From the NCBI GenBank assembly GCA_031549685.1, contig JAVBPG010000042.1:3826-67825 (forward strand): a stretch of DNA of 64,000 bases, in the 5' to 3' direction. The translations under genes were made by a program, and so were the position numbers. Positions 19,171 through 63,040 of the stretch are shown piece after piece; position 1 is the stretch's first letter; the number at the start of each line of letters is the position of its first letter. The notes beneath the pieces were generated by a model that saw only the letters and a program-made list of their open reading frames with translations, had not been told where the DNA came from and did not search any database. The DNA comes from Bacteroidales bacterium. GTDB lineage: Bacteria > Bacteroidota > Bacteroidia > Bacteroidales > UBA932.

Positions 19171-20433
19171 ATGACGGAGGCGGTTTTAGATAAGCTCAAA
19201 ATTCTTGCTGAGGCGGCCAAGTACGATGTGTCCTGCGCATCGAGCGGGCACTCGCGCGGCAACAAGGACAAGGGCCTGGGCACGGCGCATGGCTGGGGCA
19301 TTTGCCACAGCTTTGCCGAGGACGGGCGCTGCGTGTCGCTGCTCAAGATCATGCTTACCAACAACTGCATTTACGACTGCGCCTACTGCGTAAACCGCCG
19401 CAGCAACGATGTTAAGCGCACCACCTTTTCGGTTACGGAGCTGGTGGAGCTCACCATGGAGTTTTACCGCCGCAACTACATCGAGGGCTTGTTCCTGAGC
19501 TCGGGCGTAGTGCGCAACCCCGACTACACCATGGAGCGCATGGTGCGCGTGGCAAAAGATTTGCGCGAGGTTCATCGATACAACGGCTACATTCACCTCA
19601 AGAGTATTCCTGGAGCGAGCCGCGAGCTCGTTACCCAGGCGGGCCTGTACGCCGACCGCCTGAGCGTGAATATTGAAATTCCTACCGAAGAAAATTTGAA
19701 GCTGCTGGCGCCCGAAAAGGATTTTCAGAGCGTGTTTCAGCCCATGTCGTTCATCTCGCAGGGAGCATTGGAAAGCGCCGAGGAGCGTCGTAAATACCGC
19801 CATGCCCCACGCTTTGCGCCTGCCGGACAAAGTACGCAGCTCATAGTTGGCGCTACGCCTGAAACAGATAAACAAATTTTGCAGCTAAGCACCTCGCTTT
19901 ACCAACGGCCAACGCTCAAGCGCGTGTACTACTCGGGCTACATTCCCGTTAACGCTAACGATAGCCGCCTGCCGGCCCTGACCACGCCGCCGCTGGTGCG
20001 CGAGCACAGACTCTACCAGGCCGACTGGCTCATGCGCTTCTACAGCTTCCGCGCCGACGAAATTGTGGACGACCGCAACCCCAACCTCGACCTGGAGCTC
20101 GACCCCAAGCTGACGTACGCCCTGCGCCACCCCGAAATGTTTCCGGTGGACATCAACCGCGCCGACTACGAAACCATTTTGCGCGTACCGGGCATTGGCG
20201 TTAAGTCCGCCAAGCTGATAGTAGCCTCGCGGCGTTACGGCAGGCTGAACAGCGAGCAGCTGCGCAAAATGGGCGTGGTAATTAAGCGGGCGCAGTATTT
20301 TATTACCTGCGGCGAGCTGGCGCCGTACTCCGTAAAGGAGGTGCGTCCCGAGTTCCTGCGCAAGCTGTTTCTGCCTCCAAAATCGGCAAAGGAAAAGAAG
20401 CTGGAGGGGCAGCTGCAGCTGCAGTGGGAGTGA
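19171..20433 (+). CDS. Putative DNA modification/repair radical SAM protein (TIGR03916-type)
   Basis: It has CIYDCAYCVNR (CxxxCxxC) and a C-terminal helix-hairpin-helix-like ILRVPGIGVKSAKLI. The N-terminal KYDVSCASSG is typical of this family. Confidence 0.85.
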   Translation: MTEAVLDKLKILAEAAKYDVSCASSGHSRGNKDKGLGTAHGWGICHSFAEDGRCVSLLKIMLTNNCIYDCAYCVNRRSNDVKRTTFSVTELVELTMEFYRRNYIEGLFLSSGVVRNPDYTMERMVRVAKDLREVHRYNGYIHLKSIPGASRELVTQAGLYADRLSVNIEIPTEENLKLLAPEKDFQSVFQPMSFISQGALESAEERRKYRHAPRFAPAGQSTQLIVGATPETDKQILQLSTSLYQRPTLKRVYYSGYIPVNANDSRLPALTTPPLVREHRLYQADWLMRFYSFRADEIVDDRNPNLDLELDPKLTYALRHPEMFPVDINRADYETILRVPGIGVKSAKLIVASRRYGRLNSEQLRKMGVVIKRAQYFITCGELAPYSVKEVRPEFLRKLFLPPKSAKEKKLEGQLQLQWE

Positions 20434-20440
20434 AATGTAA

Positions 20441-20490
20441 GTGGGCAGTTTGCAGTGGGCAATACGCAGTAGCAGTTTGCAGTAGGCAAT
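20441..20490 (+). repeat. Heptamer array of the GTAGGCA family (gtgggca gtttgca gtgggca atacgca gtagca gtttgca gtaggca)
   Basis: It has 7-bp periodicity and begins 8 nt after the radical-SAM stop codon. Confidence 0.8.
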
Positions 20491-20500
20491 ATGGGGCATT

Positions 20501-20714
20501 GTCATCCTGAGTGAAACGAAGGATCTCAAGTTGGTGCAATTTGTTCAAGTCCACGTCATTGCGAGGACGAGGAACGAGGAATCTCAAGCCTCTGTCCTGT
20601 CATTGCGGGCTTGATCCGCAATCCCCTCGATTAGGAGATCCCGAATCAAGTTCGGGATGACAGAAAGAGATGAGAGATTGCTTTGCCACGCCACGGCGTG
20701 ACTCGCAATGACGC
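20501..20714. repeat. Cluster of five GTCAT-family units (three forward, two reverse)
   Basis: The units start or end at 20501, 20555, 20599 (forward) and 20634-20661, 20674-20714 (reverse). Confidence 0.8.
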
Positions 20715-21540: not shown

Positions 21541-21583
21541 GAAAAAGAAGCGGCGACACTGTAAATGCCGCCGCTTCTTTTGT
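21541..21583. terminator. Bidirectional intrinsic terminator between convergent genes
   Basis: The stem agaagcggcg / cgccgcttct is flanked by an A-run and a T-run. Confidence 0.8.
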
Positions 21584-21615
21584 GCATACTGCCAGCTGCT
21601 ACTGCCAGCTTCTTT

Positions 21616-22062
21616 TTACACCTTCACCTTTACCACCAGCTTCTTTATTTCACCGCTGCCAACCAGGGGCATGTGCACATCCTCGGGGAATAAAATAACG
21701 AATTGTCCGGGCTTGATTTCCACGAAGGTATCGGGCTTGTCGGCGTAAAAAATGATGTCCTTCTCGGGGTTGTAGGCATCCTTCACGCTTTTGCAGTCGG
21801 GGCGGTAGCTCCAGCCAAAGCTCTCCTTGCCGGCAACGCACAGCTGAATGTCAATGTAGCTATCGTGCGCCTCGTGCTTGGCTGCCTCGGGGGCAAGGCC
21901 CTGGCGCACCATGTAGGTAGCGTAAACCTCCTTGCCGTCCACCTCGTACTTCTTCTCCTCGAGTTGCGATAAGTCATTGCTTTGTATGAAGTTGAACGCT
22001 TTTTCGAAGCGGGGGTTGAGCGAAAAATATTTTTTCGCGTTGCTTAAGTTGTCGATTATCAT
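21616..22062 (-). CDS. YhcH/YjgK/YiaL family protein (DUF386)
   Basis: MIIDNLSNAKKY…HDSYIDIQLCVAGKE…FVILFPEDVHMP is typical of this family. I chose the start at 22062. Confidence 0.85.
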   Translation of the reverse strand: MIIDNLSNAKKYFSLNPRFEKAFNFIQSNDLSQLEEKKYEVDGKEVYATYMVRQGLAPEAAKHEAHDSYIDIQLCVAGKESFGWSYRPDCKSVKDAYNPEKDIIFYADKPDTFVEIKPGQFVILFPEDVHMPLVGSGEIKKLVVKVKV

Positions 22063-22166
22063 AACGAAAATGTTTAAATTTGTTTTTGCAAATATACTGA
22101 TTGTTTTTGACTGGCAAATAGCGTTGGCAGCTGCCGGCATTCGGTAAGTAAATTATAGTAAACTAA

Positions 22167-29683: not shown

Positions 29684-30418
29684 ATGATTGAAGTAGTTCC
29701 CGCCATAGACATCATCGACGGCAAGTGCGTGCGCCTTACCAAGGGCGACTACGCGCAGAAAAAGGTGTACAACGAAGACCCGCTGGAGGTGGCGAAATCC
29801 TTTGAGGGGGTTGGGCTGCGGCGCCTGCACGTGGTGGATCTGGACGGCGCCAAGGCGCAGCACATTGTAAACCACAAGGTGCTCGAAAAAATTGCCGCCA
29901 AAACCGCTCTGGTAGTCGATTTCGGCGGAGGGCTGAAAAGCTCGGACGACCTGCGCATAGCCTTTGAGTGCGGCGCGCGCATGGTTACGGGCGGCAGCAT
30001 TGCGGTTAAAAACCCCGGTGAGTTTACCGGCTGGATTGAAAAATTCGGAGGCGAAAAAATTATTCTCGGCGCCGATGTGAGCGGGGAAAAAATTGCCGTA
30101 AGCGGCTGGCAGGAGGGCACCGATTTAGACCTTCTTCCCTTCATAAAATCGTACGCGGCAAAGGGCATTACGCAGGTAATCTGCACCGATATAGGCAGGG
30201 ACGGCATGCTGCAAGGCCCCAACATTGCGCTGTACAAAAAAATAGCGGAGGCATTTCCGGACTTGCATTTAGTAGCAAGCGGGGGAGTGTCGGCCATGGC
30301 CGACATTGAGGCGCTGGACAAGAACGGCCTGCGCTCGGTCATCGTGGGCAAGGCCATTTACGAGGGACGGATTTCGATGGAGGAGCTGGGGAAAATGGCA
30401 GTAGGCAGTAGGCAGTGA
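29684..30418 (+). CDS. hisA: ProFAR isomerase HisA
   Basis: [20 protein letters not shown]…[10 protein letters not shown] is typical of HisA. The last codons are encoded by the GTAGGCA array. Confidence 0.9.
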
Positions 30419-30443
30419 AGACAAGTAGGCAATAGGCAATGGG
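30397..30443 (+). repeat. GTAGGCA-family array/composite element
   Basis: The sequence ggcagtaggcagtaggcagtgaagacaagtaggcaataggcaatgg overlaps the hisA stop. Confidence 0.85.
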
Positions 30444-30454
30444 GTGGGTAAACC

Positions 30455-30497
30455 TTTAAACTTTGAATCTTTGAATTTTGAATTTTGAATTTTGAAT
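30455..30497 (+). repeat. Heptamer array (TTTGAAT), about 5-6 units
   Basis: The sequence ctttaaactttgaatctttgaattttgaattttgaattttgaat ends 10 nt before the hisIE ATG. Confidence 0.85.
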
Positions 30498-30507
30498 AGC
30501 GAAGCTT

Positions 30508-31098
30508 ATGGTTGATTTTGCAAAAATGGATGGCCTGGTGCCCGCGGTGGTGCAGGATAGCGCTACGGGCAAGGTGCTTATGGTGGCGTTTATGAACGAG
30601 GAGGCGTACCGGAAAACGCTCGAAACAAAGCTGGTAACCTTCTACAGCCGCACCAAGCAGCGCCTGTGGACCAAGGGCGAGGAGAGCGGAAATTTCCTTG
30701 ATCTGCTGAGCCTTACCGAGGACTGCGACCACGATACGCTGTTGGTAAAAGCCAAGCCCCGCGGCGTGGTGTGCCACACCGGCGCCGACACCTGCTTTGG
30801 CGAAAAAAATGAGAGCGGAATTTTATTTCTCGACTACCTGCAAAACCTCATTGCCACGCGCAAAAAGGAAATGCCCGAGGGCTCGTACACCACCAAGCTT
30901 TTTCAAAAAGGCGTCAATAAAATTGCGCAGAAGGTGGGCGAGGAGGCCGTGGAGCTGGTCATTGAGGCCAAGGATAGCAACGAGGAGTTGTTTCTGGGCG
31001 AAGCCGCCGACCTCATGTTCCACTTCCTGGTGCTGCTTACGCAAAAGGGCTACACGCTCGGCGATGTGGTAGGCGTACTCGAAAAACGGCATAAATAA
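30508..31098 (+). CDS. hisIE: Bifunctional phosphoribosyl-AMP cyclohydrolase / phosphoribosyl-ATP pyrophosphatase
   Basis: The HisI part is LVPAVVQD…WTKGE(E)SGN…DCD(H)D and the HisE part is KIAQKVGEEAVE…EAADLMFH. Confidence 0.9.
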   Translation: MVDFAKMDGLVPAVVQDSATGKVLMVAFMNEEAYRKTLETKLVTFYSRTKQRLWTKGEESGNFLDLLSLTEDCDHDTLLVKAKPRGVVCHTGADTCFGEKNESGILFLDYLQNLIATRKKEMPEGSYTTKLFQKGVNKIAQKVGEEAVELVIEAKDSNEELFLGEAADLMFHFLVLLTQKGYTLGDVVGVLEKRHK

Positions 31099-60344: not shown

Positions 60345-60429
60345 GTCATCCTGAGCAAGGCGAAGGATCTCAAGTTCGCACAGGGCTTCATATTCACAAC
60401 ATGAGATTCTTCGCTTCGCTCAGAATGAC
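60345..60429. repeat. GTCAT-family long palindrome
   Basis: gtcatcctgagcaaggcgaaggatctcaag pairs with …catgagattcttcgcttcgctcagaatgac. Confidence 0.8.
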
Positions 60430-60524: not shown

Positions 60525-60589
60525 CATTGCCGATTGCCTACTGCTACTGCCTACTTGTCTTTACTGCCTACTGCAAGCTGCCTACTTGT
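60525..60589 (-). repeat. GTAGGCA-family composite element (minus orientation), abutting the folE stop
   Basis: The reverse complement reads caagtaggcagcttgcagtaggcagtaaagacaagtaggcagtagcagtaggcaatcggcaatg. Confidence 0.85.
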
Positions 60590-61194
60590 TAATGCATCCT
60601 TGCGCCCGTCATCAGAATAAACTCCTCGCGGGTTTTTTGCTGCGTCATAAAGGGGCCGGTAAAGGCCGATGTGGTGGTTACGGAGTTCTGCTTTTCCACG
60701 CCGCGCATCTGCATGCACATGTGCGCCGCCTCAATAATTACGGCCACGCCAAGCGGTTGCAGCGCCTCCTGAATGCAGTCGCGGATTTGCACTGTGAGCC
60801 TTTCCTGCACCTGCAGGCGGCGGGCAAAGGCATCGACCACGCGGGTAATTTTGCTCAGGCCGGTAATGTAGCCGTTGGGGATGTAGGCCACGTGCGCCTT
60901 GCCGTAAAAGGGCAGCAGGTGGTGCTCGCACATGGAGAACAGCTCAATGTCTTTTACCAAAATCATCTGCTTGTACTCCTCCTTAAACTTGGCGGAATTG
61001 ATGATATCGAAGGGATTTTGGGCGTAGCCCTGCGTCATAAAAAGCCGCGATTTGGCAACGCGCTCGGGCGTTTTTTGCAGGCCCTCACGCGCGCTGTCCT
61101 CGCCCATCAAGTCCAGAATGGCCTTCACATGCTTGCCGATGGCGTCAACTTTTTCTTGGTTGAAAGAATCGATTCTTTCGTAGTGTTCTGTCAT
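60589..61194 (-). CDS. folE: GTP cyclohydrolase I
   Basis: …[20 protein letters not shown]… and …HMCMQMRGV… are typical of FolE. Confidence 0.95.
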
Positions 61195-61238
61195 TTTTCG
61201 TATCTTTGGGTTACAAATTTACAAAAATAAATCAGCAA

Positions 61239-61883
61239 ATGCAGCTTTTGGTTGTAGCCGCCACCGAGCTTGAATTAAGCGCTGTGAAAAAGCGTTTAGC
61301 GAATGTTCCTAACGTTGATTTTGCAGCTACAGGTGTGGGCATGTTGGCTACTGCGTATACGCTTACCAAGTTGCTTTCGCAAAAAAAATACGATTGGGTT
61401 TTTAATGTAGGAATCGCCGGAGCATTTTCCGAAAAAATGAGATTGGGTGAGGTGGTAGCTGTTAAGAATGAGTCGATAGGTGACAGTGGTGTTGAAAATG
61501 CTGAGGGGGTTATAGCTGCTTATCCAAAAGAATTGCAAAGTGATGTGGTGTTAAATTGCCCCTATGTAAACGAATTTTCTACTTTGGAAAACGTTCAGCA
61601 AGCAAATGGCACAACTGTAAACCTGTTGACCGAAAATGAAATGAGAGTTGCGCAGCGTAGCGGTTCTGCCGATGTGGAAACAATGGAAGGCGCCGCGTTT
61701 TTTTACGTTTGTAAAAAAGAAAATGTAAATTTTTTGCAGCTAAGAGGCATTTCAAATCGAGTGGGGGAGCGCGATAAGGCGAAGTGGAAAATAGCAGAAG
61801 CGATGGAGAGTGTGAGTGATTTATTAGTACGTTGTCATTCCGCGCTTGATGCGGAATCCCCAAATCGGGAGATTGCGGATTAA
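61239..61883 (+). CDS. mqnB: Futalosine hydrolase-like nucleosidase (PNP_UDP_1 family)
   Basis: It has MQLLVVAATELE…GVGMLATAY…GIAGAF…VETMEGAAF and is adjacent to mqnD. The last ~17 codons are read from a GTCAT repeat unit. Confidence 0.7.
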   Translation: MQLLVVAATELELSAVKKRLANVPNVDFAATGVGMLATAYTLTKLLSQKKYDWVFNVGIAGAFSEKMRLGEVVAVKNESIGDSGVENAEGVIAAYPKELQSDVVLNCPYVNEFSTLENVQQANGTTVNLLTENEMRVAQRSGSADVETMEGAAFFYVCKKENVNFLQLRGISNRVGERDKAKWKIAEAMESVSDLLVRCHSALDAESPNREIAD

Positions 61884-62058
61884 GTCCGCAATGACAGCGC
61901 GCTATATAAGATGTTGTAAAACAAAGTGTTGATGTTGCCATGCTGAGCGAAGCGAAGCAATCTCAGGCTGTGCCAAAATGATAGCTGTACGAACTTGAGA
62001 TGCTTCGCTTCACTCAGCATGACAAAGATTGCTTCGTCGTACCTCCTCGCAATGACGC
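61834..62058. repeat. Cluster of five GTCAT-family units
   Basis: The units lie at 61834-61861 (+), 61868-61895 (-), 61937-61967 (+), 61994-62023 (-) and 62024-62058 (-). Confidence 0.8.
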
Positions 62059-62143
62059 CACGATTGAGCGCGCTGTTTTAAATTTGTAAATTAACTACGT
62101 TGAGCTCGCAAGCTCGGTTGTACTTTGTAAATTGTCAATTAGA

Positions 62144-62977
62144 ATGACTCTCGGATTTTCTCCCTGCCCCAACGATACCTTCATATTTCACGCCCTGCTG
62201 CACGGCCTGGTCGATACCGAGGGCCTGGCCTTTGAGGCGCACATCGCCGATGTGGAGGAGCTCAACACGCTGGCCCTGCAGGGTAAGCTGGAGGTTACCA
62301 AGCTCAGCTACGCGGCCTACACGCAGGTGGCCGGCAGCTACTTAATTCTCGATTCGGGCGGCGCGCTCGGGCGTGGCAACGGTCCGCTATTGGTTACAAA
62401 AAATGCAACGGAAATTACCGCTGATGCCCGCGTGGCCATTCCCGGAAAATATACCACGGCGGCCTTTTTGCTGCGCCTGGCCTTTCCGCAGCTGCGGCGT
62501 TGGGAGGAAATGCTTTTTTCGGATATTCCGCAGGCCGTTTTGCAGGGTCGGGCCGACGCCGGGGTGCTCATTCACGAGAGCCGCTTTACCTACGCGCAGC
62601 AGGGCTTGCGCCTGCTGGCCGACCTGGGCGCGGAGTGGGAAAAGCGCAGCGGGCTACCCATTCCGCTGGGTTGCATTTGCGTAAGGCGAAACCTGCCGCT
62701 TGAGCAGCAGCGGGCCTTTGCCCGGGTGCTGCGCCGCAGCGTGGAGTACGCGTTGCGCAATCCTGCCGAAAGTCGTACATTTGTCAAGCGCCACTCGCAG
62801 GAGTTGAGCGACGAGGTTATTGATAAGCATATCGCTATGTTTGTTAATGATTACACTTTGTCTCTTGGTGTGGAAGGAAAAAATGCCGTAGAAAGATTTT
62901 TTGCGGAAGCGACAAAGCGAGGTGTAGTGAAGGAAATGCCGGAGGATGTTTTTTTAGAAAACAGTGAAGACAAGTAG
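62144..62977 (+). CDS. mqnD: 1,4-dihydroxy-6-naphthoate synthase
   Basis: MTLGFSPCPNDTFIFHALLHG…LSYAAY…LDSGGALG is typical of MqnD. Its TAG stop lies in the GTAGGCA element. Confidence 0.85.
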   Translation: MTLGFSPCPNDTFIFHALLHGLVDTEGLAFEAHIADVEELNTLALQGKLEVTKLSYAAYTQVAGSYLILDSGGALGRGNGPLLVTKNATEITADARVAIPGKYTTAAFLLRLAFPQLRRWEEMLFSDIPQAVLQGRADAGVLIHESRFTYAQQGLRLLADLGAEWEKRSGLPIPLGCICVRRNLPLEQQRAFARVLRRSVEYALRNPAESRTFVKRHSQELSDEVIDKHIAMFVNDYTLSLGVEGKNAVERFFAEATKRGVVKEMPEDVFLENSEDK

Positions 62978-63040
62978 GCAGTTTGCAGTAGCAGTAGGCA
63001 GTAAAGACAAGTAGGCAGTGGGCAATCGGCAATGTAGTGC
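62964..63040 (+). repeat. GTAGGCA-family composite element
   Basis: The sequence is gtgaagacaagtaggcagtttgcagtagcagtaggcagtaaagacaagtaggcagtgggcaatcggcaatg. Confidence 0.85.

Follow-up and report, generated by a model that had tools for sequence, protein, structure and literature searches.

GTAGGCA Arrays at Gene Ends in the Window

Why do runs of GTAGGCA-like heptamers stand at the ends of several genes of this Bacteroidales bacterium, and are they independent microsatellites or copies of one dispersed element? In the window, i.e., the whole stretch of 64,000 nucleotides that was analysed, GTAGGCA occurs 25 times against 7.3 expected, and none of 100 shuffles reached a count of at least 25. 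The original prediction concerned four loci, whose genes were identified by Pfam. The array at 20441-20488 (plus strand; units GTGGGCA, GTTTGCA, ATACGCA, GTAGCA and GTAGGCA) lies 7 nt 3' of the TGA (20431-20433) of a radical-SAM/HHH_3 ORF (19171..20433), and a GTCAT-headed palindromic element comes next after it. At 30395-30443 (plus strand), an array joined to a AGTGAAGACAAGTAGGCA module and to GGCAATAGGCAATG overlaps the 3' end of a His_biosynth ORF (hisA, 29684..30418), encoding its last seven codons and its TGA stop (30416-30418), which falls within GCAGTGAAGAC; the remaining hisA-hisIE spacer (30444-30507, plus strand) is composed of a GGGTGGGTAAAC linker and of TTTGAAT-type repeats up to the start at 30508. 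The hisA copy is internal to the his operon. The composite array CAAGTAGGCAGCTTGCAGTAGGCAGTAAAGACAAGTAGGCAGTAGCAGTAGGCAATCGGCAATG (60525-60588, minus strand) is located 3 nt past the TAA (60591-60589) of the GTP cyclohydrolase I gene (folE, 60589..61194, minus strand), and a composite array with two AGTRAAGACAAGTAGGCA modules (62964-63040, plus strand) lies at the 3' end of mqnD, a VitK2_biosynth (MqnA/MqnD-type) ORF (62132..62977) whose TAG stop (62975-62977) is the TAG of AAGTAGGCA. A fifth, degenerate copy, GCTGGCAGTAGCAGCTGGCAGTATGCA (21583-21609, minus strand), was found 6 nt past the TAA of the minus-strand ORF 21616..22140; a hairpin with a T-run is next to it, at 21541-21576, and the sister species G004 also harbors an array at the orthologous site.

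It had been predicted that each of the four arrays reads GTAGGCA in the sense of the gene upstream, begins close to its stop codon and, at mqnD, includes the stop. A direct reading of the radical-SAM, hisA, folE and mqnD loci bears this out: the arrays start from 24 nt before to 7 nt after the upstream stop, and the TGA of hisA, like the TAG of mqnD, is supplied by the array. The sequence motif that all four were thought to share is instead present in three, since, among the window loci, the 18-mer AGTRAAGACAAGTAGGCA and the terminal GGCAAT-N-GGCAATG were found only at hisA, folE and mqnD. The radical-SAM array has neither, its nearest match being the array at C34:26022 (91%, 44 nt). The 18-mer has five occurrences in the genome; outside the window, C33:2344 is a further site of the 18-mer and C16:1263 one of the terminal motif. 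The scan of the window with Rfam 15 at gathering score returned two tRNAs only, with no match for the arrays. Each of the four loci has one arm and no second, inverted one, no ORF lies inside the window arrays, nor is there a PF05635 gene within 1 kb; being one-armed, these loci are to be regarded as derived from, or related to, the gene-bearing cassettes described below, rather than as cassettes.

Placement and Orientation in the Genome

The genome, a 2.4 Mb Bacteroidales MAG, was scanned with TRF and with a regular expression for units of the type [AG]T-N(1-3)-GCA, mostly of 7 nt and some of 6 nt; since the expression is circular and the family filter admitted unrelated units, core and variable positions of the unit are not inferable from the resulting set. 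Arrays of at least three units number 42, against one in a first-order Markov simulation, and the bias in orientation and position that had been foreseen is present: 35 of the 42 lie at most 40 nt from a co-oriented stop, one for each of 35 genes. Thirty-two arrays are in sense in tandem spacers, five are in convergent spacers, three are antisense and none is in divergent spacers, even though these account for 20% of the intergenic bases; the median relative position of the arrays within the spacer is 0.036. About 2% of the genes carry an array, and those that were identified have no common theme.

Several general causes were considered and discarded. Contigs C8 and C9 bear arrays of both orientations within a span of 45 kb, always following the gene, so that the direction of replication is not the cause. 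The generic composition of 3' flanks does not account for the arrays either, the GC skew being only 0.04 in the first 30 nt after stops; the general stop context of the genome is TAA-A or TAG-C, not GTAGGCA-like. Recoding of TGA, as a reason for the odd stop usage, was rejected on the basis of the absence of a coding signal downstream of the TGA. A terminator or hairpin role was rejected too: the minimum free energy of the arrays is -4.3 kcal/mol versus -3.5 kcal/mol for shuffles, and hairpins of -15 kcal/mol or below are no commoner in the next 100 nt than in controls (7/35 arrays vs. 65/150).

Spacer Homology and Turnover between Species

The claim that the four loci are copies of a dispersed element rather than independent microsatellites is upheld by the shared 18-mer and by the homology of entire spacers. 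The mqnD and folE spacers align with each other, the homology continuing past the array to about 63075, and the hisA-hisIE spacer aligns over its full length with the ABC-2 permease-UDG spacer on contig C33. Close relatives have no array at their mqnD and folE orthologues; a sister species has arrays at no more than about half of the orthologous sites, at one of which a different heptamer family is located instead of GTAGGCA, and the orthologous arrays of G000 and G004 differ in unit number and sequence. The comparison of filled and empty orthologous sites revealed neither a target duplication nor a clean insertion boundary. In G004, nine out of ten arrays adjoin a sense stop; where genes converge, each is followed by an arm in its own sense, the pair forming a hairpin.

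Inverted Arms and PF05635 Genes

In IMG/VR, 55 contigs with 107 loci were retrieved, 97 of which follow the sense-stop rule, a count that, like the one given below for the metagenome arms, is perhaps partly inflated, since ORFs of at least 80 aa in high-GC contigs may be spurious. Arrays are in sense only at 68 loci, in both orientations at 29, antisense only at three and neither at seven, and the array-stop distances peak at -4 and -11, where the stop is the TAG of a unit. In contigs of other lineages having 64-71% G+C, the GTAGGCA unit forms the arms of hairpins.

The analysis of metagenomes disclosed 71 loci with inverted GTAGGCA arms 400-430 nt apart, the ORFs interior to which are 119-130 aa long. 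PF05635 (23S-rRNA-IVS/Avd-like) is matched by 61 of 63 interior ORFs, 42 of which also match bAvd, and the two matching PDB entries, 2GSC and 2RLD, contain five chains each; an ORF stop adjoins an arm in 44/49 of these loci, with the same reservation on spurious ORFs. G048 and G218, which belong to the same order as the organism studied, also harbor a PF05635 gene, with an arm of the GTAGGCA unit family on either side. The new observation is that inverted GTAGGCA arms enclose PF05635 genes in metagenomes, and arms of this unit family do so in G048 and G218. As for the genome under study, its PF05635 genes are located between co-oriented genes, six of them clearly with inverted arms of other units (for instance, GGAGAAT/ATTCTCC and ATGATTT/AAATCAT), and none is within 1 kb of any GTAGGCA array; likewise, according to the listed coordinates, no PF05635 gene shares a contig region with arrays in G004, G006, G017 and G032. 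Within the family, the four genomes rich in arrays contain 8, 12, 10 and 6 copies of PF05635 versus 0-4 in 21 array-poor ones, a co-occurrence that corresponds to about two independent events because G000, G004 and G006 are mutually closest relatives; G029 and G038 are PF05635-rich and have zero GTAGGCA arrays.

The order of the arms is strict: at 16 sites the 5' arm of the hairpin is GTAGGCA, and the reverse order was found at none. The IMG/VR scan for arms 400-430 nt apart yielded none in either order, so that it provides no control of polarity at that spacing. Array hairpin pairs number about four in this genome (C9:26477/26523, C33:6093/6121, C6:454 and C7:107522), and convergent ones are common in G004, G006 and IMG/VR contigs. 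Considering all unit families, arrays after a stop contain little C (C 0.087, G 0.256) and those before a start little G (G 0.092, C 0.141), which is what inverted pairs would predict for their two arms. The cassettes are placed between genes, with arms adjoining a stop and a start and with the 5' arm on the stop-bearing strand. Perfect GTAGGCA runs contain stops in all three frames, as do only 4/42 of the degenerate arrays of this genome, so that an argument based on the closing of frames is partial.

Origin of the Arrays and Alternative Explanations

Most likely, the GTAGGCA runs are gene-less and mostly one-armed leftovers of hairpin cassettes carrying an Avd-like gene. The best explanation overall, to which a probability of about 0.6 may be assigned, is that the arrays are the stop-side arms of heptamer-armed inserts that enclose PF05635 and occupy gene junctions. 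In this class of inserts, the arms would be two runs of a 7-nt unit in inverted orientation, with a small gene for a four-helix-bundle PF05635 protein between them in the full form; the GTAGGCA-armed copies of this genome contain no gene, about 31 out of 35 having lost, or never possessed, the start-side arm, and four still form hairpins. The polarity is fixed, with GTAGGCA as the 5' arm and TGCCTAC as the 3' arm on either strand, so that the arm adjoining a stop is always GTAGGCA in the sense of that gene. One, two or all three frames of the GTAGGCA strand contain a TAG, TAA or TGA, and the opposite strand is open, so that the insert can occupy or replace a stop with the sacrifice of only a few C-terminal residues. 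Copies would spread as entire spacers among unrelated junctions, after which the unit number would drift through slippage. The solo arrays would descend from two-armed cassettes; since most arrays are solo, followed by unrelated modules and devoid of any trace of TGCCTAC, this is a descent that we infer rather than see. Selection might act in this genome against the hairpin and against a C-rich arm on the start side, as Bacteroidota starts probably need A/U-rich unstructured leaders, and the arrays would be transcribed within 3' UTRs or intercistronic RNA.

The original prediction had left the choice between a 3'-UTR function and an element targeting stop-codon contexts. The latter is favoured by the spacer homology, by the PF05635 genes found between like arms elsewhere and by the strict polarity of the hairpins, whereas a gene-specific 3'-UTR function is less likely because the arrays are not conserved at mqnD and folE, are patchy among species and show no enrichment of structure or hairpins. 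A more general version of the 3'-UTR idea would make the arrays an RNA element in its own right, single-stranded, unstructured and multivalent, to which an RNA-binding protein would attach and so affect mRNA fate, with the RRM-1 family protein of the Bacteroidota as the most plausible candidate. This would fit their strict sense orientation next to stops, their absence from divergent spacers and a secondary structure not beyond that of shuffled controls. Moreover, RbpB of B. thetaiotaomicron shifted a probe of three GUAGGAUA copies, having GUAGG in common with the unit (bioRxiv 10.1101/2021.04.27.441718), and this genome contains an RRM_1 gene (C44:13851-14063). Nevertheless, CLIP data for RbpB indicate AU-rich sites (PMC11697453), and no co-occurrence of RRM_1 and arrays was found, the former being present in 34/41 relatives regardless of the latter. 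The gaps at mqnD and folE orthologues and at about half of the sites common with the sister species, the substitution by a different heptamer family at one of them, the lack of a common theme among the array-bearing genes and the use of the unit as hairpin arms in GC-rich contigs of other lineages also make an RNA element quite unlikely.

Unlikely, but to a slightly lesser degree, is the possibility that the arrays are local microsatellites due to polymerase slippage favouring 7-nt units, with selection keeping those that do not extend the upstream protein. Period 7 is indeed dominant among the tandem repeats of the genome (some 385 arrays built from dozens of unrelated units), a perfect 12-unit GTTAGCA run lies at C4:63414-63517, the G000 and G004 orthologous arrays differ as described, and a slippage origin of the heptamer excess was proposed earlier (cited in PMC4692102). 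Slippage surely alters the unit number; it leaves placement and dispersal unexplained. A non-repetitive 18-mer and non-repetitive linkers are common to unrelated junctions, no array lies in divergent spacers and nearly none is antisense though nothing forbids them there, and ordinary 3' flanks lack a G-over-C skew that might seed arrays; the strict hairpin polarity and the conserved gene enclosed by GTAGGCA arms point in the same direction. The arrays might also act as one-way transcription insulators, the sense (GUAGGCA)n escaping Rho and the antisense (UGCCUAC)n loading it, so as to block antisense entry at the 3' end of the gene. Rho binding is based on pyrimidine-C dinucleotides, of which (GUAGGCA)n has none and (UGCCUAC)n one per 7 nt, and what speaks for this role is composition, the sense strand being G-rich and C-poor like the post-stop arrays of all unit families. 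With an array on only about 2% of the genes, no such skew in ordinary 3' flanks and, in other lineages, hairpin pairing between the two arms that would mask the C-rich one, insulation appears very improbable.

Returning to junction inserts, a broader proposal can be advanced tentatively: heptamer-armed PF05635 cassettes might be cross-phylum mobile inserts homing to the junction between a stop and the next gene, their 7-nt register and arm polarity being needed by an Avd-like-dependent reaction, and the STRR, TAACTGA and GGGAATC repeats, together with the present families, might be their gene-less footprints.

Comparison with Known Repeats

Tandem 7-base repeats are overrepresented between genes in many bacteria, and the heptamer literature that was found offers no mechanism; an origin from PF05635 cassettes may help to explain why they are so common. 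Since a conserved small Avd-like gene is tied to the GTAGGCA unit in many environmental genomes as well as in G048 and G218, it is a concrete and testable candidate factor. The Bacteroidales family follows an unusually clean rule, in that the array begins at the stop, in sense, often provides the stop itself, and whole spacers are copied. The rewriting of C-terminal codons and stops of housekeeping genes (hisA, mqnD) matters for the annotation of C-termini, and operon spacers filled by arrays are relevant to models of operon expression in Bacteroidota.

The literature search for tandem GTAGGCA strings found no microbial paper. The rule of placement at stop codons has already been published for the GGGAATC repeats of Xanthomonas, described together with the GGGGAYT repeats of Nostoc (Rehm et al. 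2015, PMC4692102), and the GTAGGCA family is a further example of it. Both are intergenic tandem heptamers, rare between divergent ORFs and not fixed to the same genes in sister species, and the G-rich strand of Rehm-type repeats is on the coding strand, at most 50 bp from the stop or overlapping it, as is that of GTAGGCA (35/42 within 40 nt). Xanthomonas has 70-75 convergent inverted pairs of GGGAATC per genome (PMC4692102). The GTAGGCA arrays belong to another phylum and are mostly solo, stop-side arrays in mosaic spacers. The units of the latter contain GG and at most an occasional GGG, short of the G3-4 runs of a G-quadruplex, so that the G-quadruplex reading of Rehm et al. does not carry over. 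A link to PF05635 is absent from the text of PMC4692102, in which the terms "S23", "xcc0516" and "intervening" do not occur. According to the same paper, the STRR heptamers of heterocystous cyanobacteria (Calothrix PCC 7601) comprise several unrelated tandem families that occupy the intergenic DNA of one genome, as here; a stop-codon rule and an associated gene are not described for STRR in the account given there.

TAACTGA direct repeats are known from Beggiatoaceae, Cyanobacteria and some Bacteroidetes, and their horizontal spread was suspected, with no mechanism found (MacGregor 2015, PMC4679880). Like GTAGGCA, they are heptamers strongly oriented with respect to genes, extend into ORF ends and are absent at the orthologous sites of close relatives; they contain stops in all three frames of the forward strand. 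In contrast, TAACTGA adjoins start codons in forward orientation and GTAGGCA adjoins stop codons, and neither composite spacer homology nor an associated gene was reported for the former. With regard to the enclosed gene, a likeness is found in rRNA. The intervening sequences in the 23S rRNA of Leptospira, Coxiella and others carry a PF05635 ORF, and have in common with the cassettes a small PF05635 gene within pairable inverted repeats. The heptamer-armed inserts are located between protein-coding genes rather than in rRNA, with arms adjoining a stop and a start, and the window copies differ from PF05635 cassettes in having no ORF.

A RAYT-driven REP model is not supported, as the three Y1_Tnp genes of the genome are not flanked by GTCAT palindromic repeats (for those at C7:137209 and C18:19950, the 500 nt around the gene contain 0-1 GTCAT repeat heads) and none was seen adjoining a GTAGGCA array. 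The arrays resemble REP/BIME and REPIN-RAYT sequences in being short and abundant extragenic repeats that are specific to the transcribed strand, located after stops in mosaic spacers, and differ from them in being tandem direct repeats and not palindromes; the GTAG start of the unit resembles the GTAG head of REPs.

Structure and Homology of the GTAGGCA Arrays

The reading of the window sequence with ORF maps and Pfam searches bore out the four predicted loci of tandem ~7-nt GTAGGCA-family repeats and their relation to the upstream stop codons. At 20441-20488 (+), the TGA of a gene with Radical_SAM and HHH_3 domains is followed by 7 nt and then by the array. At 30395-30443 (+), the array covers the end of the hisA ORF (His_biosynth), encoding ...MAVGSRQ and providing the TGA. 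The array at 60525-60588 (-) begins 3 nt after the TAA of folE (GTP cyclohydrolase I), and at 62964-63040 (+) mqnD (VitK2_biosynth, MqnA/MqnD type), ending in ...ENSEDK, terminates at the TAG within AAGTAGGCA. The His_biosynth and VitK2_biosynth domains stop, respectively, 14 and 21 residues short of the array-supplied C-termini. A degenerate fifth array is located at 21583-21609 (-), 6 nt past the stop of ORF 21616..22140; overall, the window contains 25 copies of GTAGGCA vs. 7.3 expected. The degenerate array is immediately followed by a sequence (GAAGCGGCGGCATTTACAGTGTCGCCGCTTCTTTTT, 21541-21576, -) that combines a GC-rich hairpin with a run of T; it keeps its position in the sister species G004 and looks like a classical intrinsic terminator. 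The ORF at 61206-61883 (+) has a coding score of 24.5 (neighbours 180-260) and a lower G+C content, and its 3' end enters a cluster of a separate palindromic repeat, the GTCAT element.

The motifs thought to be shared by all four loci are present at hisA, folE, and mqnD; the radical-SAM locus carries neither the 18-mer AGTRAAGACAAGTAGGCA nor the terminal GGCAAT-N-GGCAATG, and its array is closest to one on contig C34. The 18-mer has five copies in the genome (one at hisA, two at mqnD, one at folE, and one at C33:2344) and the terminal motif four. The mqnD and folE spacers are alignable over ~110 nt, non-repetitive stretches included, and the hisA-to-hisIE spacer (window 30444-30507) is alignable end to end with the spacer between the ABC-2 permease and uracil-DNA-glycosylase genes at C33:2290-2400; both the hisA and the permease ORFs terminate at the TGA of a GTGAAGACAAG module. 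Entire junction spacers (stop-side array, linker, and start-side A/T-rich repeats) are thus dispersed among unrelated gene pairs. Judging from the 18-mer and the spacer homology, the array copies are related and not independent, in agreement with a dispersed composite element rather than independent microsatellites.

Placement of the Arrays across the Genome

The assembly (2.40 Mb, 60 contigs, 52% G+C), in which our own crude hexamer model called 1861 genes (88% coding), was searched with the pattern ([AG]T N1-3 GCA), at least three repeats being required. This disclosed 42 arrays, against one in a Markov-simulated genome. Tandem spacers harbor 32 arrays in sense and three in antisense orientation (two-sided binomial p ~4e-7), so that the orientation bias relative to stop codons foreseen by the original prediction was upheld genome-wide; five further arrays are located in convergent spacers, one (antisense) within a gene, and one at a contig edge. 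The lack of arrays in divergent spacers is notable, since these represent 53 of the 266 kb of intergenic DNA. An array lies at -24 to +34 nt from the stop codon of 35 genes, the median relative position in the spacer being 0.036. Two layouts predominate: either the stop is the TAG of the first unit (...AAG-TAG-GCA, offset -4), or the array begins after a TAA and a stretch of 1-8 A-rich nt. At least one frame of the GTAGGCA strand is closed by stops in 40/42 arrays (all three in only 4/42), and the opposite strand is open in 37/42, which would enable the element to sit on a stop codon. The longest array of the family (C4:63414-63517, -), located 4 nt past a TAA stop, comprises 12 perfect GTTAGCA units and, after these, three GTTGGCA units.

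Different causes of this placement were considered. Replication direction can be rejected, because on C8 (the contig of the window, which spans C8:3826-67825) and C9 arrays of opposite orientation lie near one another, each 3' of its own gene, the orientation always tracking the gene. A generic 3'-flank composition was likewise rejected as the source, ordinary flanks having neither a G-over-C skew nor a GTAGGCA-like stop context. No structure was found in the arrays, downstream hairpins were no commoner than in control flanks, and the arrays have no Rfam match. It is conceivable, as a lead, that a predicted RRM-1 protein binds the array RNA, since RbpB bound GUAGGAUA repeats in vitro (bioRxiv 10.1101/2021.04.27.441718); however, RRM-1 genes and arrays gave no co-occurrence signal.

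Stop codon usage in the whole genome, according to our gene calls, is unusual (TAA 977, TAG 704 (38%), TGA 170 (9%)), and C comes next after 43% of TAG stops. A recoding of TGA was rejected, the sequence downstream of TGA carrying no coding signal, as expected of a true stop.

Other Repeats of the Genome

The tandem repeats of this genome are mostly of period 7 (~385 arrays, dozens of units). Some families abut stops in sense orientation (GGAGAAT, GTAGGCA), and others starts (AAATCAT, AAATTGT, CGTAATT, AATTTTT), post-stop arrays being C-poor and pre-start arrays G-poor. Among the 338 extragenic arrays, an inverted partner lies no more than 200 nt away in only 67 cases.

A GTCAT-headed palindromic element lies within 45 nt 3' of 12/35 GTAGGCA arrays, and within 100 nt past the stop of 8% of ordinary genes. 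About 830 GTCAT heads are present in 2.4 Mb, in the window at 60345-60429, 20501-20714, and 61834-62058; a 34-nt segment of the folE spacer is repeated at 15 or more sites (94-100% identity). Three Y1_Tnp genes (IS200/IS605 or RAYT-type) were detected (C7:137209-137559, C18:19950-20294, and C25:4-135), the two complete ones having 0-1 GTCAT heads within 500 nt.

Distribution in Bacteroidales and Other Lineages

The repeat family is patchy: at least five matches were found in 6/41 relatives, and any match in 42/401 genomes and 34/232 genera of Bacteroidales, the order to which the organism belongs, a reversed-pattern control being nearly empty. A sense stop adjoins 9/10 arrays of G004, where the two genes of a convergent pair each carry a sense arm of their own and these arms pair as a hairpin. 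Among nine orthologous junctions compared between G004 and this genome, 4-5 carry an array in both genomes, while two have a remnant and two have none; at one further junction the array is replaced by another heptamer family, AAGTACG. No array was found at the mqnD orthologues of G004, G005, G006, and G009 or at a folE orthologue (85% identity), and neither insertion boundaries nor target duplications were seen between filled and empty orthologous sites. Farther families (genomes G059, G093, and G220) keep the sense bias, with looser distances to stops.

A scan of IMG/VR for three GTAGGCA-type units retrieved 55 contigs. Their 107 array loci adjoin a sense ORF stop only (68), stops on both sides (29), an antisense stop only (3), or none (7), with offsets peaking at -4 and -11. 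The six inspected contigs, one of which encodes a terminase, have 64-71% G+C, and hairpins of the type (GTAGGCA)n-loop-(TGCCTAC)n span the gap from the stop to the next start.

Heptamer repeats of this kind are already known from two reports (PMC4692102, PMC4679880); what is new is the GTAGGCA unit and the lineage. The same placement rule has been described for GGGAATC of Xanthomonas and GGGGAYT of Nostoc (Rehm et al. 2015, PMC4692102); these repeats are rare between divergent ORFs and mostly transcribed, and Xanthomonas has 70-75 convergent pairs per genome. TAACTGA repeats, some in Bacteroidetes, have all-frame stops and a strong orientation (MacGregor 2015, PMC4679880), but sit at start codons, whereas GTAGGCA arrays sit at stops.

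Proposed Relationship with PF05635 Cassettes

The favored reading of the arrays of the window is that they are relatives, gene-less and in most cases with a single arm, of cassettes in which a gene of the PF05635 family (23S-rRNA-IVS/Avd-like small proteins) lies between inverted heptamer arms. The four array-rich genomes of the organism's taxonomic family harbor 8, 12, 10, and 6 PF05635 copies vs. 0-4 in the other 21; as three of these genomes are closely related to one another, this co-occurrence amounts to about two events. Seven PF05635 genes of this genome (C50:9571-9978, C5:31526-31906, C24:6236-6607, C54:59823-60185, C7:51977-52306 (a pseudogene), C52:36966-37325, and C23:20101-20511) are each located between co-oriented housekeeping genes. 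At six of these loci the gene clearly lies between inverted arms of the heptamer type, the unit differing from locus to locus, e.g., GGAGAAT/ATTCTCC at the C7:51977 pseudogene and ATGATTT/AAATCAT at C52:36966; none of these genes is surrounded by GTAGGCA arms.

Such arms were found elsewhere. When metagenomes were scanned for GTAGGCA-GTAGGCA and TGCCTAC-TGCCTAC separated by 400-430 nt, 71 loci were obtained, whose ORFs between the arms cluster at 119-130 aa; 61/63 interior ORFs match PF05635, and 42 also match bAvd. Where enough flank was available, an ORF stop lies at -19 to +40 of an arm in 44/49 loci, a figure that spurious high-GC ORFs may inflate. Within the order, 4/401 genomes have inverted arms of the GTAGGCA unit family 400-430 nt apart, and in G048 and G218 the enclosed ORF belongs to PF05635. 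The arrangement GTAGGCA...N20-50...TGCCTAC was found at 16 sites on 12 IMG/VR contigs and the reversed one at none, a fixed hairpin polarity that would make the stop-side arm always GTAGGCA in sense.

Solo arms may have descended from two-armed cassettes. The absence of the start-side arm here might be due to a preference for A/U-rich surroundings of the ribosome-binding site, reported for Bacteroidota (PMC11697453); the start-side slots of this genome are occupied by A/T-rich arrays. The profile of the arm-enclosed proteins matches two PDB entries of five chains each, 2GSC and 2RLD. The closest solved structure, 2GSC, is that of XCC0516 from Xanthomonas campestris pv. campestris, the species of the GGGAATC repeats (PMC4692102).
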